Below are positions 2,025-58,145 of a stretch of DNA of 64,000 nt, piece after piece (within the stretch, counting starts at the first letter, position 1; each line of letters opens with the position of its first letter). Position numbers and translations under genes: made by a program. Under the pieces are notes generated by a model, which worked only from the letters and a program-made list of their open reading frames with translations, had not been told where the DNA came from and did no database searches. Source of the stretch: an uncultured bacterium (GTDB lineage Bacteria > Zixibacteria > MSB-5A5 > UBA10806); assembly GCA_965541585.1 (NCBI GenBank), contig CBEUCH010000016.1, positions 1 to 64,000 of the forward strand, read 5' to 3'.

Positions 2025-2036
2025 GGGATTAGAGTT

Positions 2037-40123: not shown

Positions 40124-40157
40124 GTAGGGGCGAAGACAATTCGCCCCTCTTTTTTTT
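40124..40157 (+). terminator. Intrinsic terminator formed by a GTAG-type REP-like hairpin
   Basis: GTAGGGGCGAAgacaaTTCGCCCCT followed by CTTTTTTTT. Confidence 0.75.
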
Positions 40158-40176
40158 AGCATACTTGCGAAATATA

Positions 40177-40205
40177 TTGACTATGTGGCGCGGGGTATCT
40201 ATATT
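40177..40205 (+). promoter_or_regulatory. Sigma70 promoter for the LVIVD plus paralog-array operon
   Basis: TTGACT-N17-TATATT, 60 bp before ATG 40265 (RBS AGGAGG). Confidence 0.65.
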
Positions 40206-40264: not shown

Positions 40265-42370
40265 ATGAGAGCCTTAAGAGTTATAATAACTGCACTAACG
40301 CTGCTCATGTCGGCGTTGGCGTGGGGCCAGGATGTAGAATATCTGGAATCGACCTTATGGGCTGGAATCACCGACGTCAAAGTCGTAGATAATTATGCTT
40401 ACTGCAGCTTTAGAAATGGATTGAAGATAATAGATATCACGGATAGGACGCATCCGGTCTTGACCAGCAAACTATTTTTCTTAGGAGAAGGACAGACGAT
40501 CGATATCAAGGGTGATCAGCTCTTCATGGCTGATGGTAGCGGTGGTTTACAAATAATAGATATCTCAAATCCTGAGTTTCCTGCACTCATGAGCAATCTT
40601 GGTACACCTGATACCTTATATGACGCATTTATCGAAGGAAATTATGCATACCTTGCTGTAGATGATTCTGGATTATATATCGCTGACATATCCGATCCCC
40701 TTAATCCGATTCTCGTGGGGAGTGAAGACTCTCCAATAGATGCCCGGGGTGTTTTTGTTTCAGGAGACCACGCCTATGTAGCCGATCTTTTTCGCGGCAT
40801 GAAAATATACAGAATCACAGATCCAGCCAATCCAATATTGGAGGCCGCTTTTGATTATCAGTGCTACGTTAAGAATCTAACTGTATCAGGTCATCACGCT
40901 TATCTTGCCGCCGGGGCCAGCCTGTTAATAGTTGACATCACGACTCCCCTGGAACCTGTTCTTGTATCATCCTTTTCTACTTTACCCAATCATTGCGAAG
41001 GGGTTTATGTCAGGGGGAATTATGCCTACCTTGCCGTCAGCAGTTTATTCCAGGTAATCGACATTTCTGATCCCACCAGCCCGTTCGAGGTAGGCTCATA
41101 TGAAATGTGGGGACCGGCAATGGACGTTTTCGTCCAGGACGATCAAGCATACGTGGTTGATCGTGATTATGGTCTTTTGACATTAAATATTGAAGATCCA
41201 TTCAATCCTATTCAGATCGGATATTACATCACAAAAGGAAAGCCGATTTGCGTTTTCACTGTTAATGATTACGCCTATGTGGCCGCTGACCGATTCGGTT
41301 TGCATATTATAGACATTGCTGATCCGGCTAACCCCTCTTTGCGCGGGTCGCTCCAAACAGGCCGGTGGTATCATGATATTTTTGTTCTTAATAGCTATTC
41401 TTATATTTCCGTGGGAGAATTGTTACAAATAGTGGATGTCTCGGATACTGAAAATCCATTTCTTGCAGGGGAATACGAGATAGAAAATTATTTTTATATA
41501 TCGAGTGTTTTTGTGGCCGGTCAATATGCCTACCTGGCCGTAGATGAGTTTGGATTGGAGATTGTCGATATAAGTCACCCGGAATACCCTGATCTCATAG
41601 GAAGTTATAATACATGGAGTTTCCCCTACTCCATTTTTGTCAGCGGGAATTATGCATACATGGTTGGTGAGTTCGGCCTTGAGATATTCGATGTCTCAGA
41701 TCCATCTGACCCGTTGTTAGTGGGGAGTAGCAATCTCGGATGGGCAAGTGCTGTCTTTGTTAGCGGCTCCTATGCCTATATAGGAGGCTCCAATCAGCTG
41801 GTAATATTGGATGTCATTGATCCTTTCAACCCTACACTCGTTAGTGCTTGTGATGCTCGAGGTTTCGTCCTGGACGTTTTCGTGGAAGGCCACTATGCTT
41901 ATTTGGCAGTTTACGGATTTGGTGTTCAAATCATAGATATCTCAGATCCAGCCGATCCTTCTTTGATCGCAAATCATGGTACTCCGGGTAATGCGCCCAA
42001 AGCGCATGTTGTTGACAATCATATATACGTGGCCGACGTTTTCTCCATGATTATTTTGCGTTTCGACCCTCAAACAGGAATTACGGAGGAAGTTTCAGCC
42101 GCTTCCAGATCTTTCTCCCTTTCCCAAAACTACCCCAACCCCTTCAATGCCAAGACCACAATCAAATATAGCCTGCCGGAAGCGAGGGAGGTTACAATCG
42201 AAATTTTCGACATCCTGGGACGGAAGGTTGAGACGCTGGTTCAAGAAAAACAGGCTGCCGGCTATCATCAGGTGGTCTGGGATGCTGAGAATCAGCCGTC
42301 AGGAGTCTATTTCTATTGGATAAAAGCCGGAGAATATAAGGAATCGAGGAGCTGTTTGCTTCTGAAATAG
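40265..42370 (+). CDS. Secreted LVIVD-repeat protein with CTD
   Basis: Many V.V.GNYAY.A....GL.I.DISDP..P repeats; QNYPNPFN...SCLLLK CTD. Confidence 0.9.
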   Translation: MRALRVIITALTLLMSALAWGQDVEYLESTLWAGITDVKVVDNYAYCSFRNGLKIIDITDRTHPVLTSKLFFLGEGQTIDIKGDQLFMADGSGGLQIIDISNPEFPALMSNLGTPDTLYDAFIEGNYAYLAVDDSGLYIADISDPLNPILVGSEDSPIDARGVFVSGDHAYVADLFRGMKIYRITDPANPILEAAFDYQCYVKNLTVSGHHAYLAAGASLLIVDITTPLEPVLVSSFSTLPNHCEGVYVRGNYAYLAVSSLFQVIDISDPTSPFEVGSYEMWGPAMDVFVQDDQAYVVDRDYGLLTLNIEDPFNPIQIGYYITKGKPICVFTVNDYAYVAADRFGLHIIDIADPANPSLRGSLQTGRWYHDIFVLNSYSYISVGELLQIVDVSDTENPFLAGEYEIENYFYISSVFVAGQYAYLAVDEFGLEIVDISHPEYPDLIGSYNTWSFPYSIFVSGNYAYMVGEFGLEIFDVSDPSDPLLVGSSNLGWASAVFVSGSYAYIGGSNQLVILDVIDPFNPTLVSACDARGFVLDVFVEGHYAYLAVYGFGVQIIDISDPADPSLIANHGTPGNAPKAHVVDNHIYVADVFSMIILRFDPQTGITEEVSAASRSFSLSQNYPNPFNAKTTIKYSLPEAREVTIEIFDILGRKVETLVQEKQAAGYHQVVWDAENQPSGVYFYWIKAGEYKESRSCLLLK

Positions 42371-42388
42371 AAGCTCAAGGGAGAAAAT

Positions 42389-43297
42389 ATGAAGAAGTTA
42401 TCACTGGCAACATTAATCGTGATTTTCGTCGTAGCTATAGCCTCCGCCCAATCAAACAAAATCGTCTTCGGGCCGCTGGTGGGGGATGATGCCGGAGTTC
42501 TAACCGTACACAAAAGCCAGGCCATCGGAGTTGAACTCTGGGTACGGACGAACCCGGATAATCCGGCTGACATTGTCGGAATGTCTCACGGCCTGATTTC
42601 CGAGGATTTTATCATTGCCGAGCGAAACGGCATGGATCCCGAGCCTGATTACGATTCACCCCCCTGGGAAAATGTCTTTGTGGACGGGCCGTATGTATAT
42701 GATCCGGAGGATAACTTTCCTATTCCGGTGGGTTGGACTTGCGAAATGCAGGGCGCTTTGTGTATTATTTTTAATCCGGTGCAGTGTGCTATTTTAGATA
42801 CGCAAGGAGAGTGGGATCTCTACGGCACCTGGCTGATGACCACCAACACCGAAATACCGACAGAGCAAACTTATTTCCCATTCCAGGAGGGCTGGTACCC
42901 CCATACCCAGGGCCGGGAAAGCACCATTTGGGCATTCGACATTGGTGGTGGTGTCACTCCGGAGCAGTCTTACTGCGGGTTGTATTTTGAATCTAACATC
43001 TGCTCCTATCTCTCAGGCGACTGCGACCATAACGGCTTTCCAATCGAACTCACTGATGTTTTAGCCATGATCGGCTTTTACAGGGGAACGATGGAACCAT
43101 ATTTATGTGAATGCAGCGAAGATCCGACAGTCTACAACTTCGCCGCCACCGCCGACCCCAACGGCAACTGCGCACCCAACGAACTCCTGGACGTGGTTAC
43201 TGAGATAGCCGCCTACCGGGGAACCATGACAGCCTCCGGCTGCCCCGACTGCCCCGGCTCTGAGGGGCTGGTAACAGGCGAGAACGAAGGTCAATAA
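42389..43297 (+). CDS. Array paralog 1: secreted variable domain plus Cys-rich dockerin
   Basis: Signal peptide, NKIVFGPL..DDAG domain, GDCDHNG...ADPNGNC duplicated Ca-loop/helix. Confidence 0.85.
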   Translation: MKKLSLATLIVIFVVAIASAQSNKIVFGPLVGDDAGVLTVHKSQAIGVELWVRTNPDNPADIVGMSHGLISEDFIIAERNGMDPEPDYDSPPWENVFVDGPYVYDPEDNFPIPVGWTCEMQGALCIIFNPVQCAILDTQGEWDLYGTWLMTTNTEIPTEQTYFPFQEGWYPHTQGRESTIWAFDIGGGVTPEQSYCGLYFESNICSYLSGDCDHNGFPIELTDVLAMIGFYRGTMEPYLCECSEDPTVYNFAATADPNGNCAPNELLDVVTEIAAYRGTMTASGCPDCPGSEGLVTGENEGQ

Positions 43298-43307
43298 GGG
43301 AGAAAAT

Positions 43308-44228
43308 ATGAAAACGCTGCTCTCAATATTATTGGCGATAATGTTCATGCAATCAGCGGCTCTCTCGCAGGACCTGAACAAGATCGTCTTCGGCCCGCTG
43401 GAGGGAGATGATGCCGGAGTTCTGACCGTGCATAACGGCCAGGCCATCGGAGTTGAACTCTGGGTGCGGACAGATCCGGGCAATCCTGCTCCTGTTGTTG
43501 GTGTAGCTCACGGACTCATGTCTGAAGATGTCATCATAGCCGAGCGAAATGGCTTGGATCCTGAGCCCCTGTACGATTGGTGTATGTATTTTGTCGACGG
43601 CCCATACGCTTATGATGACCCGTATGAATATGAATTTCCCATCCCTCCGGGCTGGACATGTGAAATGCAGTGGGCTGTCCCCTGCGATTGGCCGCCCTGT
43701 GGTGACGGCGAACCCGGCGGCGGTCCCATGGACACTCAGGGCGAATGGGACCTCTACGGTAGCTGGCTGATGATCACTAACATCGAAATACCGGCAGAGC
43801 AAACTTATTTCCCATTCCAGGAGGGCTGGTACCCCCATAACGGCGAGGGAACAAAATGGGAATTCGAGGGTGGTGGAGGCGTCGTGCCGGAGCAGTCCTA
43901 CTGCGGCCTGTATTTTGAATCTAATATCTGCTCCTATCTCCTCGGCGATTGCGACCATAACGGCTTTCCGATAGAACTCACCGATGTTTTAGCCATGATC
44001 GGCTTTTACAGGGGGGGAATAGAGCCAGATTATCTATGCGAATGCGGCGAAGATCCGACAGTTTACAGCTTCGCCGCCACAGCCGACCCCAACGGCAACT
44101 GCGCACCCAACGAGCTTAGCGACGTGGTTACCGAGATCGGCGCCTACCGGGGAACCATGACGGCCTCCGGCTGCCCCGACTGCCCCGGTACGGAGGGGAT
44201 AGTGATTCGAGAAAATGAAGGTCAATAA
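43308..44228 (+). CDS. Array paralog 2: variable domain plus dockerin
   Basis: Same architecture as paralog 1. Confidence 0.85.
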   Translation: MKTLLSILLAIMFMQSAALSQDLNKIVFGPLEGDDAGVLTVHNGQAIGVELWVRTDPGNPAPVVGVAHGLMSEDVIIAERNGLDPEPLYDWCMYFVDGPYAYDDPYEYEFPIPPGWTCEMQWAVPCDWPPCGDGEPGGGPMDTQGEWDLYGSWLMITNIEIPAEQTYFPFQEGWYPHNGEGTKWEFEGGGGVVPEQSYCGLYFESNICSYLLGDCDHNGFPIELTDVLAMIGFYRGGIEPDYLCECGEDPTVYSFAATADPNGNCAPNELSDVVTEIGAYRGTMTASGCPDCPGTEGIVIRENEGQ

Positions 44229-44238
44229 GGGCGGAAAT

Positions 44239-45123
44239 ATGAAAACGCTACTCTCAATAATATTGGCTATATTGTTCATGCAATCACCGGCCTCCGCCCA
44301 ATCGAACAAGATCGTCATCGGCCCACTGGAGGGGGATGACGCCGGTGTTTTGACAGTGCACAATGGCGAAGCCATAGAGGTTGAGATATGGGTGCGAACC
44401 GATCCGGATAATCCGGCGGTGGTTATAGGCGTGAGCCACGGATTATTGTCAGAGGATATCATCATAGCGGAGCGAAATGGCATGGATGTTGAGCCCCCGT
44501 ACGACGAATGGCTTCAATATTTTGTAGATGGGCCCTTTACAGATGCCGACGGGGGTGCTTACCCTTATCCTGCCGGCTTTATCGGCGAGATGCAGGGTGC
44601 AATCTGGTGTGGCTTTTTGCCGCCTTGCCCCGACCAACCCATAGACACTCAGGGCGAATGGGACCTTTACGGCACATGGCTGATGGATGTTAATATCGGA
44701 ATACCGACAGAGCAAACTTATTTCCCATTCCAGGAAGGATGGTACCCCCATAGCGGGTATGGCACCCTATGGGCATTCGACGGTGGTGGCATGGTCACTC
44801 CCGAGCAGTCTTACTGCGGCCTTTATTTTGAGCCATATCCTTGTTCATATATCCCCGGCGACTGCGACCATAACGGTTTTCCAATAGAACTCACCGATGT
44901 CCTGGCCATGATAGGTTTTTACAGGGGAACGATGAGACCAGATTTATGCGAATGCGGCGATGATCCCTTAATGCTCTATTTTGCTGCCACCGCCGACCCC
45001 AACGGCAACTGCGCGCCCAACGAGCTTCTGGACGTGGTTACCGAGATAGCCGCCTACCGGGGAACCATGACAGCCTCCGGCTGCCCAGATTGCCCCGGTA
45101 CGGAGGGTTTGTTGCGAAAATAA
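44239..45123 (+). CDS. Array paralog 3: variable domain plus dockerin
   Basis: Same architecture; start moved to ATG 44239 (MKTLLSI) by homology with the other paralogs. Confidence 0.85.
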   Translation: MKTLLSIILAILFMQSPASAQSNKIVIGPLEGDDAGVLTVHNGEAIEVEIWVRTDPDNPAVVIGVSHGLLSEDIIIAERNGMDVEPPYDEWLQYFVDGPFTDADGGAYPYPAGFIGEMQGAIWCGFLPPCPDQPIDTQGEWDLYGTWLMDVNIGIPTEQTYFPFQEGWYPHSGYGTLWAFDGGGMVTPEQSYCGLYFEPYPCSYIPGDCDHNGFPIELTDVLAMIGFYRGTMRPDLCECGDDPLMLYFAATADPNGNCAPNELLDVVTEIAAYRGTMTASGCPDCPGTEGLLRK

Positions 45124-45132
45124 GGCGGTAAT

Positions 45133-46038
45133 ATGAAGAATCTATTCAAAACATTATTGGTAACCTCTTTAATAACAGCGTCAGCTTCCGCCCAATCCAA
45201 TAAGATCGTCGTCGGCCCGCTGGTGGGGGATGATGCCGGAGTCCTGACCGTGCACAATGCTGAGGCTATAGAAGTTGAACTCTGGGTGCGGACCGACCCG
45301 GCTAATCCAACTTCCATTATCGGCGTGGCGCATGGTTTATCCTCAGATAATGTTATTATTGCTGAGCGAAATGGAGTTGTTATAGAACCTGAATACGACG
45401 AGCCCTATTGGTGCACAGTCTGGGTCGACGGGCCTTTTATCCATAATCCAGCTGACGATTTCCCCATTCCGGAAGGTTTGACATGCGAGATCTCGGTCGG
45501 ATTATATACATGGTGGCCCGACTGCATCGGCTGGCCGCTCAATACTCAGGGCGAATGGGACCTCTACGGCACCTGGCTGATGGTTGTTAATACCGGAATA
45601 CCAACAGAGCAAACTTATTTCCCATTGGAAGAGGGCTGGTATCCCCACAACGGAGAGGGCACAAACTGGGCATTCGACCGTGGTGGAGGCGTCACTCCGC
45701 AACAGTCTTACTGCGGCCTGTATTTTGAATCTAACATCTGCTCCTATATCCCCGGCGACTGCGACCATAACGGCTTTCCAATAGAACTCACCGATGTTCT
45801 GGCCATGATAGGCTTTTACAGAGGGGGAATAGAGCCAGATTATCTATGCGAATGCGGGGAAAACCCGACAGTATACAACTTCGCGGCCACAGCCGACCCC
45901 AACGGCAACTGCGCGCCCAACGAGCTTCTGGACGTGGTTACCGAGATAGCCGCCTACCGGGGGACGATGACCGCCTCCGGCTGCCCCGACTGCCCCGGTA
46001 CGGAGGGGATTGTGATTCGAGAAAATGAGGATCAATAA
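45133..46038 (+). CDS. Array paralog 4: variable domain plus dockerin
   Basis: Same architecture. Confidence 0.85.
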   Translation: MKNLFKTLLVTSLITASASAQSNKIVVGPLVGDDAGVLTVHNAEAIEVELWVRTDPANPTSIIGVAHGLSSDNVIIAERNGVVIEPEYDEPYWCTVWVDGPFIHNPADDFPIPEGLTCEISVGLYTWWPDCIGWPLNTQGEWDLYGTWLMVVNTGIPTEQTYFPLEEGWYPHNGEGTNWAFDRGGGVTPQQSYCGLYFESNICSYIPGDCDHNGFPIELTDVLAMIGFYRGGIEPDYLCECGENPTVYNFAATADPNGNCAPNELLDVVTEIAAYRGTMTASGCPDCPGTEGIVIRENEDQ

Positions 46039-46047
46039 GGGGGAAAT

Positions 46048-47502
46048 ATGAAGAGGCTCTTCTGGCTATTACTGATTATATCTTTTATTTCATCATCAGC
46101 TTTCGGACAGGGCCTGAATAAGATCGTCTTCGGCCCGCTGGAGGGAGATGAAGCCGGGGTTCTAACCGTGCATAACGGTGAAGATATCGAGATCGAAATG
46201 TGGGTTCGAACAGACCCTAATAATCCAGGGCCTGTTGATAACATATTTCATGCTCTACTCTCTGAAGATATTATTATCGCCGAACGAAATGGTATTGTTA
46301 TTGAACCTCCGTATGACAATGCCAACTGGGGGGGCTTTGTGGGTGTAGACGGTCCTTACGTTCATAATCCAAACGATAATTACCCTATTCCTGAGGGTTA
46401 TACATGTGAAATCCAGTATGCTCTTCATTGCGACCCTTTTCCCTGCGATACCGACGAAATGGACACACAGGGCGAGTGGGATCTTTACGGGACCTGGATG
46501 ATGGTTGTCAATATGGACATCCCCGTGGATCAGACATATTTTCCTTTCATGGAAGGCTGGTACCCCGGTACGGGAAACGGTACTGAATGGTCGTTCGACG
46601 GTGGTGGCGGCGTCACTCCGGAGCAGTCTTACTGCGGTCTTTATTTCCCGATGCCCCAAACCAATAAGATCGTCTTCGGCCCGCTGGTGGGAGATGAGGC
46701 TGGAGTCTTGACGGTGCATAACAACCAGGCCATCGGAGTTGAACTCTGGGTTCGTACCGATCCGGATAATCCGGCGGTGGTTACAGGCGTGCAACACGGG
46801 TTATTGTCAGAGGATATCATTATCTTAGAGCGAAACGGAATGGATATCGAGCCTCAATATGAATCTAATTACTGGCAAACATTTGTCGACGGCCCATACT
46901 CTTATGATGACCCGTATGAATATGAATTTCCCATCCCTCCGGGCTGGACCTGTGAAATGCAGTGGGCTCTCCGCTGCGATTTGCCGCCCTGCGACGGCGA
47001 ACCCATGGACACTCAGGGCGAATGGGACCTCTACGGTACCTGGCTGATGATCACCAACATCGAAATACCGACAGAGGAAACTTATTTCCCATTCCAGGAG
47101 GGATGGTATCCACATAGCGGGGAAGGCACCCACTGGTCATTCGAAGGTGGTGGAGGCGTATACCCTGAGGAAGATTACTGCGGTTTGTATTTCGAACAGT
47201 ATATCTGCGAATATATTCCCGGCGACTGCGACCATAACGGCTTTCCGATAGAACTCACCGATGTCCTGGCCATGATAGGTTTTTACAGGGGAACGATGAG
47301 ACCAGATTTATGCGAATGCGGCGATGATCCCTTAATGCTCTATTTTGCTGCCACCGCCGACCCCAACGGCAACTGCGCGCCCAACGAGCTTCTGGACGTG
47401 GTTACCGAGATAGCCGCCTACCGGGGAACCATGACAGCCTCCGGCTGCCCAGACTGCCCCGGCTCGGAGGGGCTCGTAATTCGAGAAAATAAAGGGCATT
47501 AG
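46048..47502 (+). CDS. Array paralog 5: two tandem variable domains plus dockerin
   Basis: NKIVFGPL occurs twice (YCGLYFPMPQTNKIVFGPL junction), followed by the dockerin. Confidence 0.85.
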   Translation: MKRLFWLLLIISFISSSAFGQGLNKIVFGPLEGDEAGVLTVHNGEDIEIEMWVRTDPNNPGPVDNIFHALLSEDIIIAERNGIVIEPPYDNANWGGFVGVDGPYVHNPNDNYPIPEGYTCEIQYALHCDPFPCDTDEMDTQGEWDLYGTWMMVVNMDIPVDQTYFPFMEGWYPGTGNGTEWSFDGGGGVTPEQSYCGLYFPMPQTNKIVFGPLVGDEAGVLTVHNNQAIGVELWVRTDPDNPAVVTGVQHGLLSEDIIILERNGMDIEPQYESNYWQTFVDGPYSYDDPYEYEFPIPPGWTCEMQWALRCDLPPCDGEPMDTQGEWDLYGTWLMITNIEIPTEETYFPFQEGWYPHSGEGTHWSFEGGGGVYPEEDYCGLYFEQYICEYIPGDCDHNGFPIELTDVLAMIGFYRGTMRPDLCECGDDPLMLYFAATADPNGNCAPNELLDVVTEIAAYRGTMTASGCPDCPGSEGLVIRENKGH

Positions 47503-47511
47503 GGAGGATAT

Positions 47512-48468
47512 ATGAAAACGTTACTCTCAATAATATTGGCGATATCGATCATGCCGTCAGCGGCCCTTTCGCAGGACCTGAACAAAATCGTCTTCGGGCC
47601 TCTTGTGGGCGACAGTGCCGGAATACTGACTGTCCGCAACGGGGAGGAAATTGCCATTGAAATGTGGATACACGCTGATCCCGAAAATCCATCATGTATT
47701 ATAGGTCTATCTCATGGACTCATAACCGACGACGCTATCATTGCTGAAAGAAACGGCGTTGTCATCGATCCGTATTATGATGAACCCTACTGGGAGTCAG
47801 TCTGGGTTGATGGCCCATTTGACCACAACCCGGAAGATCCCTTTCCGATCCCGGAAGGACATACCGGTGAAAACCAGGTTGCCCTGGGATCCCTATTTGG
47901 TGGTTGTGATAGCATTCTTCATATACTCCCGGATACGGGATGGGTTTATTACGGGTCGTTTTTAATGGTATGTAACGATAACGTACCGCTGGGCGAAATA
48001 TATTATCCATTTTCCATAGGCTGGTATCCGCATAGCGGTCAGGGAACCAGCTGGTCGTTTGATAACCCTCCGGGCGGCAGTGTTGAACCGGAGCAGGATT
48101 ACTGCGGACTTTATTTCGTGCCGGAATGCGATTATGTTCCCGGCGATTGCGACCACGACGGGACTCCGTGGAGGCTTACCGATGTAGTCTCCATGATCGC
48201 CTTCTACAGAGGCTTTGCGGAACCTCCCTATACGTGCTACTGCCCGCCTCATGATGACGATTACCCTCCCGGCGCCGATCCCGACGGCAGTTGTGTTCCG
48301 TATGAGCTCTCCGACGTGGTCATCATGATCACCATGTTCCGGGGTCCTGGATGGCCGCCTTCCGGCTGCCTCGATTGCCGAACTTTCGGCAGGGTGGATT
48401 CGAGAAATGGCGATAATGAGAACCTCGTGCCAACCCTGAAATCAAAGGCTAAGATCGAGAAAGAATGA
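47512..48468 (+). CDS. Array paralog 6: variable domain plus divergent dockerin
   Basis: GDCDHDGTPWRLTDV...ADPDGSCVPYELSDV. Confidence 0.85.
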   Translation: MKTLLSIILAISIMPSAALSQDLNKIVFGPLVGDSAGILTVRNGEEIAIEMWIHADPENPSCIIGLSHGLITDDAIIAERNGVVIDPYYDEPYWESVWVDGPFDHNPEDPFPIPEGHTGENQVALGSLFGGCDSILHILPDTGWVYYGSFLMVCNDNVPLGEIYYPFSIGWYPHSGQGTSWSFDNPPGGSVEPEQDYCGLYFVPECDYVPGDCDHDGTPWRLTDVVSMIAFYRGFAEPPYTCYCPPHDDDYPPGADPDGSCVPYELSDVVIMITMFRGPGWPPSGCLDCRTFGRVDSRNGDNENLVPTLKSKAKIEKE

Positions 48469-48478
48469 ATGGATTAAT

Positions 48479-50713
48479 ATGAAAAAGCTACCGCTTGCAT
48501 TGTTGATTATTCTCTCAGGCACAGCTCTCGCTTCGGCGCAGGATTTAAACAAAATCGTCTTCGGGCCGCTGGAGGGAGATGAGGCGGGAGTTTTGACCGT
48601 GCATAATGGCGAAGATATTGAGATTGAGATGTGGGTCCGGACCGATATCAATAATCCTGAACCCGTTTTTGCCGTAAGCCACGCTTTAATGTCAGAAGAT
48701 GAGATCATAGCTGAGCGTAACGGCGCCCAGCTTGATCCGGATTATGACATGCCGAACTGGGAGCAAGTCTTCGTTGATGGGCCATTTAATCATAATCCCA
48801 ATGATCCCTTCCCAATACTTGAAGGCCACACCTGCGAGATGCTGGGTGCTCTTTATATTGTTTTCCAAGACCCCTACCCGGGTAGCCATCCCCTTGATAC
48901 TCAGGGAGAATGGGATTATTATGGTGCTTTCCTGATGTCCTGTAATGCTGATATCCCGATCGATAATACTTATTATCCGTTTTCAGCGGGTTGGTATCCT
49001 CATAACGGATTAGGTTTCCGATGGACATTCGAGGTAGGCGAATACGTCATACCGGAGCAGGATTATTGCGGGCTTTACGTAACCACAAATGCAGACCCGG
49101 AGTTCACGATCTGTCCTCAAGATACGCAGCATGTTGCTCCCCGGCAGCCGATCTGCCTCGATGTCGCCGGCGTGGACGCAGATACGCTCGATGATCTACA
49201 TATCTCCCTGATCTCCGGACCCGGTACATATTCCGAGGAAATTGGCGGGCCCGGAGGCTTTACCTCGGGTATCTGGTGCTGGGATAATCCTGCGCCAGGC
49301 GCCCACACCGTCCTGCTCGAGCTCAACGACAATGCCGGCGGAGTCGTCTATTGCGAATTTATCCTCGATGTTGAGGACATCGCCCTGGAGATCGAGTCTG
49401 TCGCGGGGTTCCCTGGTGCTACGGTCGTGGTTCCCATTCGCTTGCACACCTGGCTTTTGAGGACCGGCGGTGTGGAGCTCCTCATAACCTGGGATCCGGC
49501 GGATCTGAAACTTACGGAAGTCGTACCTAAGTCACGCATGGACTTCGGCAATGAATACTTCAACCACGATGTAGACAATCCCTGTGATCCGCCCTGCGAC
49601 CCGGGTGGCGCCGTCAGGATTTCCTGGATATCGGATATTGACGACGGCATTCCCCATGCCCCGGCCGGCGCCGGCAGCGACCCGATCTTAGAGTTGATTT
49701 TCGATGTCTACCCCGGCCTGCCATGGGATATGAATATTCCCATCTCCTTCTTCACCCAGCACGATACGGATAACATCGTTGCCGATTCATCCGGTAATGT
49801 CTGGTTCACTCCCGAATTAATCGACGGATGTATCGGAGTGCAGGATCCCTTTACATTCAGGAAGGGCGACCCAAATATGAATGGCCATTTCTTTGAAATA
49901 GGCGATGTATTGCTGGTTATTCGTCGTTTGATTGAGGGCTATGTCGTCTGGTCTGAGAACGGCACTAATGACGACGACCTGCAAGAATACGCCGCTGACT
50001 TGAATAGAAACGGATTTGTGGATTTTTCAGATCTAATGACGTTCATCAACATTTTCAACGGTATTGTCGATCCCCCGTATAAGTTCCGGCCAGGCTCCGG
50101 GGTGGCACGTATCAGCATGACCGAAAATATCGGAGACAATGTGGTTGTATCTATCGATGCGGATGTTGATATTGGCGGGGTCCTTGTCAGAATCTCTCAT
50201 CCGGGCATTGAGCTTGATGCTCCTTATGTCGAAAACAGCATGGAGATTCGCCACCACGATTCCGATGGCCTCATGAGCGCTGTCGTATATTCGCTGGAGG
50301 CAAATACCATACCGGCCGGCAATTCGCATCTTTTCACCATACCTGTTCTCCCTAACGAGGATGGTTGCCTGCGCTTCACCGAGGTTTCCTCCGCCGACTC
50401 TTATGGTCGTCTGATGGAGACTGTGGCTTCTCTGGAGACTCCTCTGCCAACTACCTTTGCCGTCGAGCAAAACTACCCCAACCCATTCAATGCCTCCACA
50501 ACCATCCGATACAGCCTGCCGGAGGCCAGCGAGGTCACAATCGAAATCTTCAACATCCTGGGGCGGAAGGTTGAGACGCTGGTTCAGGAAAAACAGGCTG
50601 CCGGCTATAATCAGGTGGTCTGGGATGCTGAGAATCAGCCGTCGGGAGTCTATTTCTATTGGATAAAAGCCGGAGAATATAAGGAATCGAGGAGCTGTTT
50701 GCTTCTGAAATAG
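48479..50713 (+). CDS. Array paralog 7: scaffold-like protein (variable domain, Ig-like, cohesin-like, dockerin, second sandwich, CTD)
   Basis: Cohesin-like LEIESVAGFPGATVVVPIRL...GGVELLITWDPADL. Dockerin GDPNMNG...DV...AADLNRNGFVDFSDL. QNYPNPFN CTD. Confidence 0.8.
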   Translation: MKKLPLALLIILSGTALASAQDLNKIVFGPLEGDEAGVLTVHNGEDIEIEMWVRTDINNPEPVFAVSHALMSEDEIIAERNGAQLDPDYDMPNWEQVFVDGPFNHNPNDPFPILEGHTCEMLGALYIVFQDPYPGSHPLDTQGEWDYYGAFLMSCNADIPIDNTYYPFSAGWYPHNGLGFRWTFEVGEYVIPEQDYCGLYVTTNADPEFTICPQDTQHVAPRQPICLDVAGVDADTLDDLHISLISGPGTYSEEIGGPGGFTSGIWCWDNPAPGAHTVLLELNDNAGGVVYCEFILDVEDIALEIESVAGFPGATVVVPIRLHTWLLRTGGVELLITWDPADLKLTEVVPKSRMDFGNEYFNHDVDNPCDPPCDPGGAVRISWISDIDDGIPHAPAGAGSDPILELIFDVYPGLPWDMNIPISFFTQHDTDNIVADSSGNVWFTPELIDGCIGVQDPFTFRKGDPNMNGHFFEIGDVLLVIRRLIEGYVVWSENGTNDDDLQEYAADLNRNGFVDFSDLMTFINIFNGIVDPPYKFRPGSGVARISMTENIGDNVVVSIDADVDIGGVLVRISHPGIELDAPYVENSMEIRHHDSDGLMSAVVYSLEANTIPAGNSHLFTIPVLPNEDGCLRFTEVSSADSYGRLMETVASLETPLPTTFAVEQNYPNPFNASTTIRYSLPEASEVTIEIFNILGRKVETLVQEKQAAGYNQVVWDAENQPSGVYFYWIKAGEYKESRSCLLLK

Positions 50714-50731
50714 AGGCTCAAGGGGGAAAAT

Positions 50732-51622
50732 ATGAAGAAGTTAGCAGCGGCGACATTAATCGTGATTTTCAGCTTATCTATAGCCTCCGCCCAATCCAAC
50801 AAGATCGTCTTCGGCCCGCTGGAGGGAGATGATGCCGGGGTTTTGACGGTGCATAATGGTGAGGCTATTGAGATTGAGATGTGGGTACGGACAGATCCGG
50901 ATAATCCTGCCCCTATTATCGGCGTATCGCATTGCCTGATGTCTGCGGATACTATTATCGCCAGCCGCAACGGTGCCACATTTGATTCCGACTATGGCTA
51001 TCCGTGTTGGGATACCTTCGTCAGCCCCCCATTCGGACACCCGTATGATCCGAACATTCCCGAAGGACATACGATACAAGTTGCAGCCGCTATCTATACG
51101 ATATTCGATCCTCCCTGCCACCCAATGGATACGAACGGCGAATGGGACTATTACGGGGCTTTTTTGATGACATGCAATACCGGCCTGCCTGTCGACAGCA
51201 CATATTACCCGTTTTTAGCTGGCTGGTTTCCGCACAGCGGGCAGGGAACCAGTTGGTCTTTTGAAGCTCCGCCGGGCGGAAGCGTGGAGCCAGAACAGGA
51301 TTACTGCGGGCTCTTTTTTCAACCCGAAACCCGTATCGGCCAGAATGAAGGATTGCCTGAAGAGTTTTCCCTTTTCCAAAACCACCCTAATCCGTTCAAC
51401 ACCAAGACCACAATCCGATATAGCCTGCCGGAAGAGAGCGACGTCACCATCGAAATCTACAATATCCTGGGACGAAAGATTGAGACGCTGGTATCGGGAA
51501 TACAGCCAGCCGGATGGCATTCGATGGTATGGGATGCTGAAAATCGGCCGTCAGGAGTCTATTTCTATTGGATAAAAGCCGGAGAATATAAGGAATCGAG
51601 GAGCTGTTTGCTTCTGAAATAG
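50732..51622 (+). CDS. Array paralog 8: variable domain plus CTD
   Basis: NKIVFGPL domain, then QNHPNPFN...SCLLLK. Confidence 0.85.
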   Translation: MKKLAAATLIVIFSLSIASAQSNKIVFGPLEGDDAGVLTVHNGEAIEIEMWVRTDPDNPAPIIGVSHCLMSADTIIASRNGATFDSDYGYPCWDTFVSPPFGHPYDPNIPEGHTIQVAAAIYTIFDPPCHPMDTNGEWDYYGAFLMTCNTGLPVDSTYYPFLAGWFPHSGQGTSWSFEAPPGGSVEPEQDYCGLFFQPETRIGQNEGLPEEFSLFQNHPNPFNTKTTIRYSLPEESDVTIEIYNILGRKIETLVSGIQPAGWHSMVWDAENRPSGVYFYWIKAGEYKESRSCLLLK

Positions 51623-51640
51623 AAGGTCAAGGGGGAAAAT

Positions 51641-52549
51641 ATGAAAAGATTACTGATGCCATTATTAATCGTGATTTTCGGCTTAGCTACAGCCTCCGCC
51701 CAATCCAACAAGATCGTCTTCGGGCCGCTGGAGGGGGATGAAGCCGGGGTTCTAACCGTTCACAATAGTGAGGCTATCGGAATTGAGATGTGGGTGCGAA
51801 CAGACCCGGATAATCCTACGCCCATTATCGCCACAGCGCATGGTCTGATGTCTGAAAATGTGATCATAGTGGAACGAAATCGAATGGATCCTGAGCCGGA
51901 ATATAACTCACTGCCTTGGGCACAGTTCTTTATAGACGGGCCTTATGTATATGATCCCCAATATGACTTTCCTATACCTGAAGGCTGGACATGCGAAATG
52001 CAAGGTGCATTATGTTGTGACCTCCCAGGTGACCCTGGGCCGCGTCTTGACACCCAGGGCGAATGGGATCTTTACGGTACCTGGCTGATGGTCACTAATA
52101 CCGAAATAGCGACAGAGCAAACTTACTTCCCATTCGTAGAAGGCTGGTATCCGCATAGTGGCTTTGGTACTTCCTGGGTGTTCGAGTGGGGTGATGATTG
52201 GGTTGAACCTGACAAGTCTTACTGCGGGTTGTATTTCGAATCTAATATCTGCGTCTATCTCCCCGGCGACTGCGACCATAACGGCTTTCCGATAGAACTC
52301 ACTGATGTCCTGGCCATGATCGGTTTTTATAGAGGGGGAATAGAGCCAGATTATCTATGCGAATGCAGCGAAGATCCGACAGTTTACAACTTCGCCGCCA
52401 CAGCCGACCCCAACGGCAACTGCGCCCCCAACGAGCTTCTGGACGTGGTTACCGAGATAGCCGCTTACCGTGGAACCATGACAGCCTCCGGCTGCCCCGA
52501 CTGCCCCGGCTCCGAAGGAATAGTGAATCGAGAAAATGAAGGGCGATAG
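51641..52549 (+). CDS. Array paralog 9: variable domain plus dockerin
   Basis: Same architecture as paralogs 1-4. Confidence 0.85.
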   Translation: MKRLLMPLLIVIFGLATASAQSNKIVFGPLEGDEAGVLTVHNSEAIGIEMWVRTDPDNPTPIIATAHGLMSENVIIVERNRMDPEPEYNSLPWAQFFIDGPYVYDPQYDFPIPEGWTCEMQGALCCDLPGDPGPRLDTQGEWDLYGTWLMVTNTEIATEQTYFPFVEGWYPHSGFGTSWVFEWGDDWVEPDKSYCGLYFESNICVYLPGDCDHNGFPIELTDVLAMIGFYRGGIEPDYLCECSEDPTVYNFAATADPNGNCAPNELLDVVTEIAAYRGTMTASGCPDCPGSEGIVNRENEGR

Positions 52550-52558
52550 GAGGCCATT

Positions 52559-53452
52559 ATGAGGACCCTGGGATTTATATTGTTTGCATTCATATCTTTA
52601 GGGATGTCTGAGACCTCCGCGCAATCCAACAAAATCGTCTTCGGCCCGCTGGAGGGGGATGAGGCTGGAATCCTGACAGTGCATAACGGAGAGGCCATCG
52701 GAGTTGAACTCTGGGTACGGACAGATCCGGATAATCCCACCGGCATCTGTGGCATGGCCCATGGCCTATCATCAGATGATCTTATAATAGGGAGTCGAAA
52801 CGGAATCGATATTGAACCTGAGTATGACATGCCGAATTGGGAAGCCACCTGGGTTGATGGACCTTTTACGCATAATCCCGATGATCCTTTCCCAATTCCA
52901 CAAGGATTTACGTGCGAAGTTCAAATTGGTTATAGTCTGTGGTGTTCACCGTTTATGGATACGAACGGCGAGTGGGATCTCTATGGCACCTGGCTGATGG
53001 TTACCAATACTGGAGTACCGATAGAGCAGCTCTATTACCCATTTGCAATGGGCTGGTATCCTCATAGCGGACAGGGAACCAGTTGGTCTTTTGAAGCTCC
53101 GCCGGGCGGCTCGGTCGTTCCCGAGCAGGATTACTGCGGGCTCTATTTTGAAACCGAAACCCGTATAGACGAGAATAAAAGATTGCCCCAGGAGTTTTCA
53201 TTGGCTCAAAACTATCCCAATCCCTTCAATGCCAAGACCACAATCCGATACAGCCTGCCGGAAAAGAGCGATGTCACCATAGAAATCTTCGATATCCTGG
53301 GGCGGAAGGTTGAGACGCTGGTTCAAGAAAGACTGGCTGCCGGCTATCATCAGGTGGTCTGGGACGCTGAGAATCAACCATCAGGAAATTATATGTACTG
53401 GATAAAAGCCGGAAAATATAAGGAATCGAGGAGCTGTTTGCTTCTGAAATAG
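52559..53452 (+). CDS. Array paralog 10: variable domain plus CTD
   Basis: NKIVFGPL domain plus QNYPNPFN CTD. Confidence 0.85.
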   Translation: MRTLGFILFAFISLGMSETSAQSNKIVFGPLEGDEAGILTVHNGEAIGVELWVRTDPDNPTGICGMAHGLSSDDLIIGSRNGIDIEPEYDMPNWEATWVDGPFTHNPDDPFPIPQGFTCEVQIGYSLWCSPFMDTNGEWDLYGTWLMVTNTGVPIEQLYYPFAMGWYPHSGQGTSWSFEAPPGGSVVPEQDYCGLYFETETRIDENKRLPQEFSLAQNYPNPFNAKTTIRYSLPEKSDVTIEIFDILGRKVETLVQERLAAGYHQVVWDAENQPSGNYMYWIKAGKYKESRSCLLLK

Positions 53453-53470
53453 AAGCTCAAGGGGGAGAAT

Positions 53471-54364
53471 ATGAAGAAGCTATTACTGGCGACATTAATC
53501 GTGATTTTCAGCTTATCTATTGCCTCCGCCCAATCCAACAAGATCGTCTTCGGGCCGCTGGAGGGGGATGATGCCGGGGTTTTGACGGTGCACAATGCGG
53601 AGAGTATCGAAGTTGAACTCTGGGTGCGGACCGATCCGGATAATCCTGACTGGATCATAGCTGTTTCCCACGGTTTGCTTTCTGAAGATGCCATTATCGC
53701 AGAGCGGAACGGCATGGATCCGGAGCCCGAATACAACATGCCTAACTGGGAAAGTTTCTTTGTCGACGGGCCTTTTGTACATGATCCAGACTATGCTTAT
53801 CCCATTCCGATAGGGTGGACATGCGAGATGCAGGTCGCACTATGCGTCTGGAATCCGGGTTGTAGTTTGGATACCCAGGGCGAATGGGATCTTTATGGCA
53901 CCTGGCTGATGGTTACGAATACCGAAATACCGGTTGAACAGACCTATTACCCTTTTGAAATGGGCTGGTACCCTCACAGTGGTCAGGGAACATCATGGGC
54001 TTTTGAAGTACCACCGGGCGGCATCATTGAGCCGGAGCAGTCTTACTGCGGGCTCTTTTTTGAACCCGAAACAAGTATCGACGAGAATGAAAGCCTGCCT
54101 GAAGAGTTTTTCCTTTTCCAAAACTACCCCAACCCGTTCAACACCAAGACCACAATCCAATACAGCCTGCCGGAAGAGAGCAATGTCACAATCGAAATAT
54201 ACAATATCCTTGGCCGCAGGATCGAGACGCTAATATCCGGGATTCAGCCACCCGGTTCGCATTCGGTGGTATGGGATGCTGAAAATCAACCGTCAGGAGT
54301 CTATTTCTATTGGATAAAAGCCGGAAAATATAAGGAATCGAGGAGCTGTCTGCTTCTGAAATAG
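53471..54364 (+). CDS. Array paralog 11: variable domain plus CTD
   Basis: NKIVFGPL domain plus QNYPNPFN CTD. Confidence 0.85.
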   Translation: MKKLLLATLIVIFSLSIASAQSNKIVFGPLEGDDAGVLTVHNAESIEVELWVRTDPDNPDWIIAVSHGLLSEDAIIAERNGMDPEPEYNMPNWESFFVDGPFVHDPDYAYPIPIGWTCEMQVALCVWNPGCSLDTQGEWDLYGTWLMVTNTEIPVEQTYYPFEMGWYPHSGQGTSWAFEVPPGGIIEPEQSYCGLFFEPETSIDENESLPEEFFLFQNYPNPFNTKTTIQYSLPEESNVTIEIYNILGRRIETLISGIQPPGSHSVVWDAENQPSGVYFYWIKAGKYKESRSCLLLK

Positions 54365-54382
54365 AAGGTCAATGGGGAAAAT

Positions 54383-55276
54383 ATGAAGAAGTTAGCAGCG
54401 GCGACATTAATCGTGATTTTCAGCTTATCTATAGCCTCCGCCCAATCCAACAAGATCGTCTTCGGCCCGCTGGAGGGAGATGATGCCGGGGTTTTGACGG
54501 TGCATAATGGTGAGGCTATTGAGATTGAGATGTGGGTACGGACAGATCCGGATAATCCTGCCCCTATTATTGGCATATCGCATTGTCTGATGTCTGCGGA
54601 TACTATTATCGCCAGCCGTAACGGTGCCACATTTGATCCAGACTACAGCTATCCGTGTTGGAATACCTTCGTCAGCCCCCCATTCGGACACCCGGATTAT
54701 CCGGACCTTCCCGAAGGACATACGATACAAGCTGCAGGCGCTATGCATACGGTATTCGATCCTCCCTGCGATTCAATAGATACGAACGGCGAATGGGATT
54801 ATTACGGGGCTTTTTTGATGACATGCAACACCGGCCTGCCAACAGATGAAACCTATTATCCGTTTTCTATGGGTTGGTATCCTCACAGCGGCGAGGGAAC
54901 AAAATGGGCATTCGCGGGAGGTGGCGGCATCGAGCCGGAACAGTCTTACTGTGGGCTGTATTTTGAGCCATATCCTTGTTTGTACATTCCCGGCGACTGC
55001 GACCATAACAGCTTTCCAATAGAACTCACTGACGTCCTGGCCATGATAGGCTTTTACAGGGGGAATATAGAGCCAGATTATCTATGCGGCTGCGGAGAAG
55101 ACCCCATAATACACGATTTCGCTGCCACCGCCGATCCCAACGGCAACTGCGCCCCCAACGAGCTTCTGGACGTGGTTACCGAGATAGCCGCCTACCGTGG
55201 AACCATGACAGCCTCCGGTTGCCCCGACTGCCCCGGCTCCGAGGGTCTGGTAAAGCGAGAAGATGAAGGTCAATAA
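54383..55276 (+). CDS. Array paralog 12: variable domain plus dockerin
   Basis: N-domain nearly identical to paralog 8, but with a dockerin C-terminus. Confidence 0.85.
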   Translation: MKKLAAATLIVIFSLSIASAQSNKIVFGPLEGDDAGVLTVHNGEAIEIEMWVRTDPDNPAPIIGISHCLMSADTIIASRNGATFDPDYSYPCWNTFVSPPFGHPDYPDLPEGHTIQAAGAMHTVFDPPCDSIDTNGEWDYYGAFLMTCNTGLPTDETYYPFSMGWYPHSGEGTKWAFAGGGGIEPEQSYCGLYFEPYPCLYIPGDCDHNSFPIELTDVLAMIGFYRGNIEPDYLCGCGEDPIIHDFAATADPNGNCAPNELLDVVTEIAAYRGTMTASGCPDCPGSEGLVKREDEGQ

Positions 55277-55285
55277 GGGGCGAAT

Positions 55286-56185
55286 ATGAAAACGCTGCTC
55301 TCAATATTCTTGGTGATATCGATCATGCCGTCAGCGGCCGTTTCGCAGGACCTGAACAAGATCGTCATCGGCCCGCTGGTGGGAGATGATGCTGGCATTT
55401 TGACTGTGCATAACGGCGAAGATATTGAGATTGAGGTATGGGTGCGGACCGACCCGGGTAACCCGGTTTATATAGTCTTTGTTGCTCATGGTCTGTTGTC
55501 TGAAAACGCAATCATAGCGGAGCGAAATGGAATGGACCCTGAGCCTGTATATGACATGCCACCTTGGGAGTCATTCTGGGTCGATGGACCTTTTGTCCAT
55601 AATCCGGAAGACAACTTTCCAATCCCCTCAGGGTGGACCTGCGAAATGCAGGCTGCATGGCTCGGCTGGACCGATCCACCACCACCTCTCGATACACAGG
55701 GAGAATGGGACCTCTACGGCACCTGGCTTATGGTTACGAATACCGAGATACCGATAAACCAGACCTATTACCCACTTGCAATGGGCTGGTATCCGCACAG
55801 CGAGCAGGGGACCTTCTGGGGTTTTCCAGTGCCTCCCGGTGGCTCGGTGGAACCCGAGCAGTCTTACTGCGGGCTCTATTTTGAACCCGAAACAAATATC
55901 GACCAGAATGAAAGATTGCCGCAGGAGTTTTCTCTGGCTCAAAACTACCCCAATCCCTTCAATGCCAAGACCACAATCAAATATGGCCTGCCGGAAGCGA
56001 GGGAGGTTACAATCGAAATCTACAATACCCTGGGACGGAGGGTTGAGACGCTGGTTCAAGAAAAACAGGCTGCCGGCTATCATCAGGTGGTCTGGGATGC
56101 TGAGAATCAGCCGTCAGGAGTCTATTTCTATTGGATAAAAGCCGGAGAATATAAGGAATCGAGGAGCTGTTTGCTTCTGAAATAG
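55286..56185 (+). CDS. Array paralog 13: variable domain plus CTD
   Basis: NKIVIGPL domain plus QNYPNPFN CTD. Confidence 0.85.
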   Translation: MKTLLSIFLVISIMPSAAVSQDLNKIVIGPLVGDDAGILTVHNGEDIEIEVWVRTDPGNPVYIVFVAHGLLSENAIIAERNGMDPEPVYDMPPWESFWVDGPFVHNPEDNFPIPSGWTCEMQAAWLGWTDPPPPLDTQGEWDLYGTWLMVTNTEIPINQTYYPLAMGWYPHSEQGTFWGFPVPPGGSVEPEQSYCGLYFEPETNIDQNERLPQEFSLAQNYPNPFNAKTTIKYGLPEAREVTIEIYNTLGRRVETLVQEKQAAGYHQVVWDAENQPSGVYFYWIKAGEYKESRSCLLLK

Positions 56186-56203
56186 AAGGTCAAGGGGGAA
56201 AAT

Positions 56204-57103
56204 ATGAAGAAGTTATCAGCGGCGACATTAATAGTGCTTTTCGGCTTAGCTATAGCCTCCGCCCAATCCAACAAAATCGTCTTCGGCCCGCTGGAGGGAG
56301 ATGAGGCTGGGGTCTTGACGGTGCATAATGGTGAGGCTATTGAGATTGAGGTATGGGTCAGGACGGATCCATTGAATCCCGCTCCCGTCGTGGGATTTGC
56401 CACCGGATTATTGTCAAATGATAGCTTCATAGCCGAAAGAAACTGTGCCATTTTTAATCCCGAATACCATTGGGAAAGTATGGGCTGCGACGGCCCGTTT
56501 CGACACGATCCGGATGATCCTTTCCCTATCCCGGAAGGTCATACATCGGAATTCATATGGGCCATCTGTCCGCTTTTTCCCCCTCCCTACTGTGATACTC
56601 TTGATACCGGTGGCGAATGGGATTATTTAGCCTCCTTCCTGATGGTCTGCAATACCGGCGTGCCAACAGATGAAACCTATTATCCGTTTTCTATTGGCTG
56701 GTATCCTCACAGCGGCGAGGGAACAAAATGGGCATTCGCGGGTGGTGGTGGCATCACCCCGGAGCAAGACTATTGCGGATTGTATTTTGATGAAATTATC
56801 GTTTGCGATTACATCCCCGGAGATTGCGATCATAACGGCTTTCCAATAGAACTCACCGATGTTCTGGCCATGATAGGATTTTACAGGGGGAATATAGAGC
56901 CAGATTATCTATGCGAATGCGGCGAAGATCCTACAGTCTACAACTTCGCCGCCACCGCCGACCCCAACGGGAACTGCGCCCCCAACGAGCTTCTGGACGT
57001 GGTTACGGAGATAGCCGCCTACCGGGGAACCATGACAGCCTCCGGTTGCCCCGACTGTCCCGGCTCGGAGGGGCTGGTGATTCGAGAAAATGAAGATCAA
57101 TAA
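56204..57103 (+). CDS. Array paralog 14: variable domain plus dockerin
   Basis: Same architecture as the other dockerin paralogs. Confidence 0.85.
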   Translation: MKKLSAATLIVLFGLAIASAQSNKIVFGPLEGDEAGVLTVHNGEAIEIEVWVRTDPLNPAPVVGFATGLLSNDSFIAERNCAIFNPEYHWESMGCDGPFRHDPDDPFPIPEGHTSEFIWAICPLFPPPYCDTLDTGGEWDYLASFLMVCNTGVPTDETYYPFSIGWYPHSGEGTKWAFAGGGGITPEQDYCGLYFDEIIVCDYIPGDCDHNGFPIELTDVLAMIGFYRGNIEPDYLCECGEDPTVYNFAATADPNGNCAPNELLDVVTEIAAYRGTMTASGCPDCPGSEGLVIRENEDQ

Positions 57104-57112
57104 GGGAGAAAT

Positions 57113-58006
57113 ATGAAAACGCTGCTATCAATATTATTGGCGATATCGATCATGCCGTCAGTGACAGTTTCGCAGAACCTGAATAAGATCGTTTTCGGGC
57201 CGCTGGAGGGGGATGATGCCGGGGTTTTGACCGTGCACAACGGCCAGGCTATTGAGATTGAGATGTGGATTAGAACGGATCCGAATAATCCTGCGCCTAT
57301 TATCGGCGTATCGCATTGCCTGATGTCTGCGGATACCATTATCGCCAGCCGCAGTGGTGCCACATTTGATCCCGACTATAGCTATCCCTGTTGGGATACC
57401 TTCGTTAGCCCCCCATACGGACACCCGGATGATCCGAACATTCCCGAAGGATATACGATACAAGCTGCAGGCGCTATCTATACGGTATTCGATCCTCCCT
57501 GCCACCCAATGGATACGAACGGCGAATGGGACTATTACGGGGCTTTTTTGACGACATGTAATACCGGCGTGCCAATAGATGAAACCTATTATCCATTTTC
57601 CAGTGGCTGGTATCCCCACAGCGGGCAGGGAACCAGTTGGTCTTTTGAAGCTCCTCCGGGCGGAAGCGTTGATCCAGAACAGGATTACTGCGGGCTCTAT
57701 TTTGAGCCGGAGATCACTATCGATCCTATTCCTGAGATTCCCTCTGAGTTTTCATTGGCTCAAAACTACCCCAATCCGTTCAACACCAGGACCACAATCC
57801 AATATAGCCTGCCGGAGGAGAGCGGGGTCACAATCGAAATCTACAATATCCTGGGGCGGAAGGTTGAGACGCTGATTCGAGAAAAACAGACAGCCGGCTA
57901 TCATCAGGTGGTCTGGGATGCTGAAAATCAACCGTCAGGAAACTATTTGTACAGAATTAAGGTTGCGGAGTATGTGGAAACGAGGAGTTGCCTGCTTTTG
58001 AAATAA
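57113..58006 (+). CDS. Array paralog 15: variable domain plus CTD
   Basis: N-domain nearly identical to paralogs 8 and 12; CTD C-terminus. Confidence 0.85.
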   Translation: MKTLLSILLAISIMPSVTVSQNLNKIVFGPLEGDDAGVLTVHNGQAIEIEMWIRTDPNNPAPIIGVSHCLMSADTIIASRSGATFDPDYSYPCWDTFVSPPYGHPDDPNIPEGYTIQAAGAIYTVFDPPCHPMDTNGEWDYYGAFLTTCNTGVPIDETYYPFSSGWYPHSGQGTSWSFEAPPGGSVDPEQDYCGLYFEPEITIDPIPEIPSEFSLAQNYPNPFNTRTTIQYSLPEESGVTIEIYNILGRKVETLIREKQTAGYHQVVWDAENQPSGNYLYRIKVAEYVETRSCLLLK

Positions 58007-58145
58007 AGCCGGGACTATGCAAACGGCTTTCCAGAATATGCAGGCAAATCGCAATGAACGGATTTTTCGAAAAGAGGACTTGTAAATCTGGTGTCTTAAT
58101 CGGTGATTCTCAGGATCTGGCGTCAGCCTTTTCCTGGTATGTGAA

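Follow-up and report, generated by a model that had tools for sequence, protein, structure and literature searches.

The unit of inheritance in a tandem gene array can run across gene boundaries, a principle known since 2008. In the lpl cluster of Staphylococcus aureus, the unit comprises the 3' region of one open reading frame (ORF), the intergenic sequence and the 5' region of the next ORF, and it is maintained through recombination in a conserved region that each ORF contains (Tsuru and Kobayashi 2008, PMC2568036). In the esaG and tipC type VII secretion immunity arrays, homology blocks, including gene end plus intergenic sequence, drive the arrays (PMC9484751). In this work, we analyzed a locus of the uncultured Zixibacteria bacterium GCA_965541585.1, on contig CBEUCH010000016.1 (G000:C16:1-64000; this whole stretch of 64,000 nucleotides is hereafter the window), where genes g0 to g16 lie at 40265-59295, all on the + strand. 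In this array the tail of a gene, the spacer and the leader of the following gene are co-inherited, very probably through ordinary homologous recombination inside a core domain that the genes share. Such a unit is an expected outcome of crossovers within the genes of a tandem array, and the locus is a new example of a known principle rather than a new principle.

Like the lpl cluster (PMC2568036), the array consists of tandem same-strand paralogues in which the pairing of a 3' region is stronger with the 5' region of the following gene than with that of its own gene; in both, the 3' part, the intergenic sequence and the next 5' part with its signal peptide are inherited as a unit, and both feature recombination in conserved intra-ORF sequence, copy-number change, a conserved upstream end and some pairing exceptions. 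They differ in that (i) the two classes of 3' region found here are unrelated domains, a type IX secretion system (T9SS) C-terminal domain (CTD) and a predicted dockerin fold, and a swap would change targeting, (ii) the recombination handles lie here at both ends of the core with patches between them, whereas lpl has one central block, (iii) the tails are homogenized within the genome here, whereas homogenization of the lpl conserved region went undetected in that report, and (iv) that report compares many strains of one species and our comparison is between species. The esaG and tipC arrays (PMC9484751) resemble ours as tandem paralogues with several homology blocks, in which recombination leads to copy-number change and chimeras; they differ in being Firmicutes immunity genes of a single architecture, with events shown in close strains. 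No published work on this array in Zixibacteria was found in a search that covered the subscription literature thinly. The locus offers a clean case in a lineage remote from Staphylococcus, and its silent sites add evidence for homogenized tails and old cores. In practical terms, orthologues in arrays of this kind need to be assigned segment by segment, and short-read assemblies of such loci cannot be relied upon.

Linkage between tails and following leaders

The genome (G000; 3.5 Mb, 40 contigs) carries the array between a propeller gene (38963-40072) and the oligopeptidase F gene pepF (59559-61451). The first gene, g0 (40265..42370), encodes an LVIVD-repeat propeller protein with a T9SS type A CTD and no core domain, and g1-g16 are 16 genes with a core of ~175 aa, which makes 17 cores since g5 carries two. 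Each of the 16 is composed of a leader, the core and either a T9SS type A CTD or a cysteine-rich tail of ~80 aa (hereafter, dockerin-like tail); the two kinds of tail are unrelated and share no homology. Intergenic gaps measure 9-18 nt for 15 of the 16 core genes: a gap of 18 nt follows every one of the six tightly linked CTD genes (g0, g7, g8, g10, g11 and g13), and spacers of 9-10 nt follow the dockerin-like tails in 9/9 junctions. Behind g15, the seventh CTD gene, the next gene comes after 389 bp that contain a promoter-like site.

The first CTD junction (42362..42391) runs from the stop codon over the 18-nt spacer, with purines resembling a Shine-Dalgarno site, to the ATG of the next leader, and the other five lie at 50705..50734, 51614..51643, 53444..53473, 54356..54385 and 56177..56206. 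The original prediction had described one pattern common to all six, and this pattern indeed matched them with 0-1 mismatch and was absent from 100 dinucleotide shuffles. Elsewhere in the 3.5-Mb genome no further match to this junction was found when allowing up to 7 mismatches in 30 nt, and a search of the genome_contigs set with the exact pattern gave 0 matches.

The leaders behind these six junctions belong to one class, as had been proposed (class A, 77-100% DNA identity). They open g1 (42389..43297), g8 (50732..51622), g9 (51641..52549), g11 (53471..54364), g12 (54383..55276) and g14 (56204..57103). The claim that 5 of the 9 genes after dockerin-like tails begin with MKTLLSI (class B, mutually 68-91% identical) was likewise correct, these being g2 (43308..44228), g3 (44239..45123), g6 (47512..48468), g13 (55286..56185) and g15 (57113..58006); the leaders of the remaining four, g4 (45133..46038), g5 (46048..47502), g7 (48479..50713) and g10 (52559..53452), are unrelated. 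With regard to their own tails, g1-g6, g9, g12 and g14 end in the dockerin-like tail, which is divergent in g6, and g7, g8, g10, g11, g13 and g15 end in a CTD, which in g7 comes after a long extension with a Pfam-like dockerin. Class A and class B leaders are merely 35-58% identical to each other. The single constant block proposed at first thus exists as several classes, while the co-inheritance attributed to it stands.

Similarity among leaders depends on the tail class of the upstream gene (P = 0.0005, permutation over 15 genes), as opposed to the gene's own tail (P = 0.41), and it is not correlated with the gene's own mid-core either (Mantel r = 0.06, P = 0.22, 15 genes), in agreement with a repeating unit out of phase with the ORFs. 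A Fisher test of tail/leader pairing (6/0/0/9) gives P = 0.0002 for copies that are not independent; as the 15 junctions stem from few ancestors, these P values show co-inheritance and not independent events. Within the core, the last ~30 aa track the gene's own tail (P = 0.007), whereas no association with the tails was seen for the N-core or the mid-core (P 0.29-0.83), the N-terminal motif being common to all copies (P = 0.83). The block therefore reaches ~30 aa into the upstream core, and linkage ends inside the core on both sides. The comparison of identity at the junctions with that of the cores, named earlier as a possible refutation, went the same way: identity is 77-93% among CTD tails (without g16) and 81-93% among dockerin-like tails (without g6), whereas whole cores show 52-90% and 15-codon windows in the mid-core drop to 36-60%. 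The conserved parts of the core are its N-terminal ~35 aa and the C-terminal DTQGEWD..GWYPHS, with a mean DNA identity of 82-87% at the core start and 65-71% at the core end.

Recombination within the array

The cores of g8, g12 and g15 are 85-90% identical and are combined with leaders of classes A, A and B and with a CTD, a dockerin-like tail and a CTD, respectively. Over the leader and core start g8 equals g12 and g15 differs, whereas the core end unites g8 with g15, g12 having turned g14-like; the switch in g12, at ~54837-54918, lies inside the core, as does that of g15, which is g8-like from ~57296 onward. A PHI-like incompatibility test on 16 cores gave P = 0.0002 (P = 0.0008 at third positions). 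Furthermore, the stretch from the propeller gene to pepF contains 16 core genes in G000, 7 in the related genome G002, and 4 and 2 in the related loci L045 and L049; the locus of another relative, G001, is split over contigs, and the relatives' assemblies may have collapsed copies. Recombination in the array is well supported, and the earlier proposal that it reshuffled the array and changed copy number holds.

Silent positions point in the same direction. Differences at four-fold sites within the array average 0.28 for dockerin-like tails (28 pairs) and 0.23 for CTDs (21 pairs) as compared with 0.63 for mid-cores (120 pairs), which indicates young tails on old cores in the same genes. Between G000 and G002, flanking single-copy orthologues differ at 0.30-0.38 of four-fold sites and dockerin-like tails at 0.575. 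The set comprised 22 dockerin-like tails, 17 CTDs and 30 mid-cores, a few of the relatives' mid-cores having been missed by the search pattern, and the averages omit the divergent tail of g6, g16 with its orthologues, and the G002-like contigs. In g0, the body is 94% identical to its L049 orthologue and the tail 74%, and the last 246 nt are 97% identical to g13, which indicates that the g0 tail was replaced by the CTD of the array. Exact repeats of at least 30 nt lie within tails in 59 of 89 cases; long ones join g13 (56041-56188) to the tail of g0 (42226-42373) over 148 nt, g3 (44884-45089) to g5 (47248-47453) over 206 nt, and g8 (50723-50919) to g12 (54374-54570) over 197 nt, the last covering spacer, leader and core start.

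We propose unequal crossover and gene conversion between neighbours as the modes of recombination. Because CTD and dockerin-like tails lack homology, class-changing crossovers would be confined to the core, where a CTD gene and a dockerin-tail gene could yield an in-frame chimera whose 5' part comes from one gene and whose 3' part, along with the spacer and downstream leader, comes from the other. When the classes differ, a crossover or conversion tract would start and end in cores and would move tail, stop, spacer, ribosome-binding site and next leader together, the junction being largely cargo. Exchanges within same-class tails would homogenize the tails and alter copy number, and would not create the linkage. 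The long constant blocks, which the original prediction regarded as recombination handles, may act as such in these same-class exchanges, whereas the handles behind the linkage would be in the shared core. No dedicated recombinase would be needed and intact products would be a geometric by-product, since any in-register crossover gives them without a dedicated design. The statement that intact genes are always regenerated fits the array, all copies of which are complete. Among relatives, the linkage has exceptions (see below), and one core gene, the third of L045 (L045:2680-3594), shows ATA in place of the expected start ATG. In locus L036 of genome G010, core genes are broken by stops.

Two further views of the core have to be abandoned. 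It is not an untouched variable cassette, as mid-core patches of g2 and the second core of g5 (g5b) are 92-97% identical, and those of g3 and g5b 88%. Neither is it fast-diversifying overall: the ratio of non-synonymous to synonymous substitution (dN/dS) is 0.08-0.44 in 8 close pairs, which gives no support for positive selection on the cores as a whole and indicates purifying selection. Differences between close cores are mostly transitions and show no adenine bias.

Relatives and competing explanations

The core family occurred in 13 of the 41 genomes searched, with strong matches solely within the genus; it has 35 representatives among 1.84 billion proteins, and a distant member, P0012, is labelled candidate division Zixibacteria. 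The trees drawn for these comparisons are midpoint-rooted FastTree sketches in which several relatives' tails were missed. The mid-core closest to that of g14, a gene with a dockerin-like tail, belongs to an L049 gene (82%) with a CTD instead, and the mid-core of g10, a gene with a short CTD, is 84% identical to that of a G001 gene bearing a long extension of the g7 type. The leader and mid-core of g10 are both nearest the first array gene of G001, with a shared spacer stretch, ATAGGAGG; as the two were not separated here, the break was probably in the spacer. All loci covering the beginning of the array (5/5) retain its upstream region and the start of the first leader, regardless of the product of the first gene and in line with the lpl model, and the tightly linked run closes with a CTD gene in 5/5 loci.

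Several observations weigh against recombination in the shared core as the source of the linkage: (i) the four unique leaders among the nine after dockerin-like tails would require events at or near the spacer or a long divergence, (ii) the linkage has exceptions in relatives, class-A-like leaders standing after dockerin-like tails in gene 3 of L029 (G001) and in gene 4 of G002, (iii) the class B leader is nearly private to G000, (iv) the terminal CTDs of relatives are no nearer in sequence to g15 than to other array CTDs, at odds with the conserved last tail that the lpl model predicts, (v) for CTDs the contrast within the genome versus between species is small (0.23 versus 0.30-0.34 for G002 and L049, with 7 non-independent pairs each), and (vi) the gene order rests on one assembly and no event was seen at read level. 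A search of read data for this strain found none of its own reads, listing two runs with 5-6% of its words, whose contigs are relatives at mostly <95% identity, and no RNA data set or second strain of G000 was found there.

Alternatively, the junction might be held together by selection on function, with tail, stop, ribosome-binding site and leader forming a tail-class-specific module for translational coupling or secretion, which we judge improbable. The 18-nt gap does recur in 9 of the 33 CTD genes with a close next gene (of 181 CTD-terminal ORFs in the genome), always ahead of a core gene, three of these nine junctions sit at other loci, and class-A-like leaders follow CTD ends also in the relatives' loci L034, L046 and L049. 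However, the three outside junctions (L021:6038-8002 in - strand numbering, L023 and L024, on contigs C2, C8 and C6 of G000) differ in spacer and leader (0.57-0.68 to class A) and constitute a second class with M(K/N)RVL leaders, which the G001 array shares at 19 nt; two of their three CTD genes resemble beta-helix proteins by their N-termini. Besides, other CTD genes have gaps of 8-37 nt, class A leaders stand after dockerin-like tails in two relatives, and the silent sites of the tails are homogenized too. We know of no reason for a signal peptide to depend on the tail of a neighbour.

We give even less credit to a programmed or selected diversity generator, cassette- or shufflon-like, that would shuffle hypervariable cores with the junction as its recombination site. 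The many intact paralogues would suit it, as would predicted strands 94-103 and 150-156, where conserved residues alternate with variable ones, and the different order in near-identical assemblies of a relative: the low-coverage contigs L046 and L047 match parts of the G002 array at ~100% identity in another order, with switches in tails and at the core start, where the exact overlap is 15-41 nt, and this difference may reflect strain-level recombination or misassembly of low-coverage data. On the other hand, all the genes are complete and on one strand without silent cassettes, the ORF list of the window, inspected by eye with no family scan, holds no ORF resembling a recombinase or reverse transcriptase, switch points are spread over the core, most cores predate the species split, and both the substitution pattern and the dN/dS values given above argue against such a generator. 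A shufflon, a diversity-generating retroelement and silent-cassette conversion are each improbable here, since copies are complete and co-oriented, breakpoints scattered and adenine bias absent, and a dedicated enzyme is missing from the ORF list of the window.

Least credible of all is an assembly artefact, a short-read assembler mis-threading repeats into a mosaic: the array does contain 5 exact repeats of at least 77 nt and 12 of at least 55 nt, and the conflict in order between L046/L047 and G002 means that one assembly may be wrong, but every exact repeat of at least 55 nt joins genes that have a tail class or a junction class in common, so that mis-threading could alter the order and would not generate the class linkage, no exact match of g12 to a CTD gene exceeds 32 nt beyond the core start, none of the g15 core start to another gene exceeds 41 nt, and the silent-site and cross-species results are independent of order; class linkage and the g8/g12/g15 mosaic would thus survive an erroneous order.

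Predicted folds, secretion and neighboring features

A structure model of the core (g11; predicted local distance difference test score, pLDDT, 70.7) is a beta-sandwich. Among the Foldseek matches listed, cohesins took ranks 1-13 with weak E values (0.03-0.07), and the alignment to 4uyp_A reached Z 9.1 (root-mean-square deviation, rmsd, 2.7; 130 aligned), tied with the pilin RrgB (Z 9.1); identity to cohesins is 4-12%. No Pfam family, cohesin PF00963 included, matched the core when 8 core-bearing proteins were scanned, and the 4 PF00963 matches of the genome all lie outside the array. Recognition in the protein atlas did not reach the threshold, and a Cohesin 13% cluster (0.88) is no more than a lead. 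We describe the core as a predicted cohesin-like beta-sandwich. The cohesin binding face is formed by strands 8-3-6-5. In the array, core variability peaks at predicted strands 42-50, 71-81 and 94-103 plus the following loop, and at alternate residues of 150-156.

The model of the non-CTD tail (pLDDT 89.7) shows the duplicated loop-helix arrangement of dockerins, and 14 of the 15 chains at Z of at least 2 come from dockerin entries (best Z 8.6, rmsd 1.4, 61 aligned), which supports a predicted dockerin fold. By sequence, none of 47 tail domains matched dockerin type I PF00404 at E 0.1 and no PDB sequence matched the tail, which has six invariant cysteines or aspartates plus inserts. The predicted core and tail folds match adaptor scaffoldins such as ScaC and non-cellulosomal cohesins (PDB 4uyp, 5lxv, 2ccl), with cohesin and dockerin in one chain. 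The locus departs from cohesin-dockerin systems in lacking Pfam cohesin or dockerin matches for core or tail and in comprising 16 single-domain tandem paralogues and not one scaffoldin. Cohesin, dockerin and CTD proteins are described in Cloacimonadota, among them a CTD-bearing scaffoldin, which like some of the proteins predicted here combines cohesin with CTD (PMC8542988).

The T9SS type A CTD (TIGR04183 / PF18962) scored above cut-off in g0, g7, g8, g10, g11 and g16. The genome has a SprA/Sov translocon gene in the window, at 24023-29923 on the - strand (723.7 bits, cut-off 200), ~10 kb from the array, and the PorU and PorV families; with a CTD and a signal peptide, the latter judged by eye, these six genes qualify as putative T9SS type A cargo. 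The PorV family appears above cut-off in at least 8 places in G000, a large expansion for one genome. In total, G000 has 181 CTD-terminal ORFs, 46 ORFs with the cysteine-rich dockerin-fold tail and 26 cores, and none of the 46 joins that tail to a terminal CTD. Pfam misses this tail. At G000:C13:51430-74193, an open frame of 7,588 aa has a weak dockerin-like match near its end.

With a cohesin-like core and tails of T9SS or dockerin-fold type, swaps would likely move the predicted cohesin-like domain between T9SS-exported and dockerin-bearing forms. It is a tentative and rather doubtful extension of these models that the array might serve as a recombination-fed parts list for a self-assembling surface scaffold, with variable binding faces specific to each core, crossovers toggling between CTD base and dockerin adaptor and rewiring the display of the 46 dockerin-fold proteins, and a CTD handle recruiting unrelated secreted genes (g0 here, beta-helix genes elsewhere). 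If swaps did switch the core between T9SS and dockerin tails in a real cohesin-dockerin display of an uncultured phylum, the array would matter more.

As for the surroundings, a terminator-like hairpin of the upstream gene and a promoter-like site precede the array (40126..40205, + strand). Downstream of g15, g16 (58396..59295) has a divergent core and a CTD, stands outside the homogenized run and has a stable orthologue in relatives; a promoter-like site (58231-58258) lies before it and a terminator-like hairpin (59321-59342) after it. Promoter and terminator scans were at chance level (27 vs 26.4 and 22 vs 19.2), and sites are cited solely from the two long gaps. A second tandem family in the window (33-3452), of beta-helix proteins with CTD, follows the same logic: both junctions (575-588 and 2024-2037) have the end of the tail in common, as well as a spacer of 12 nt and leaders that resemble each other, and a related 10-nt junction class occurs on contigs C3, C13 and C28.

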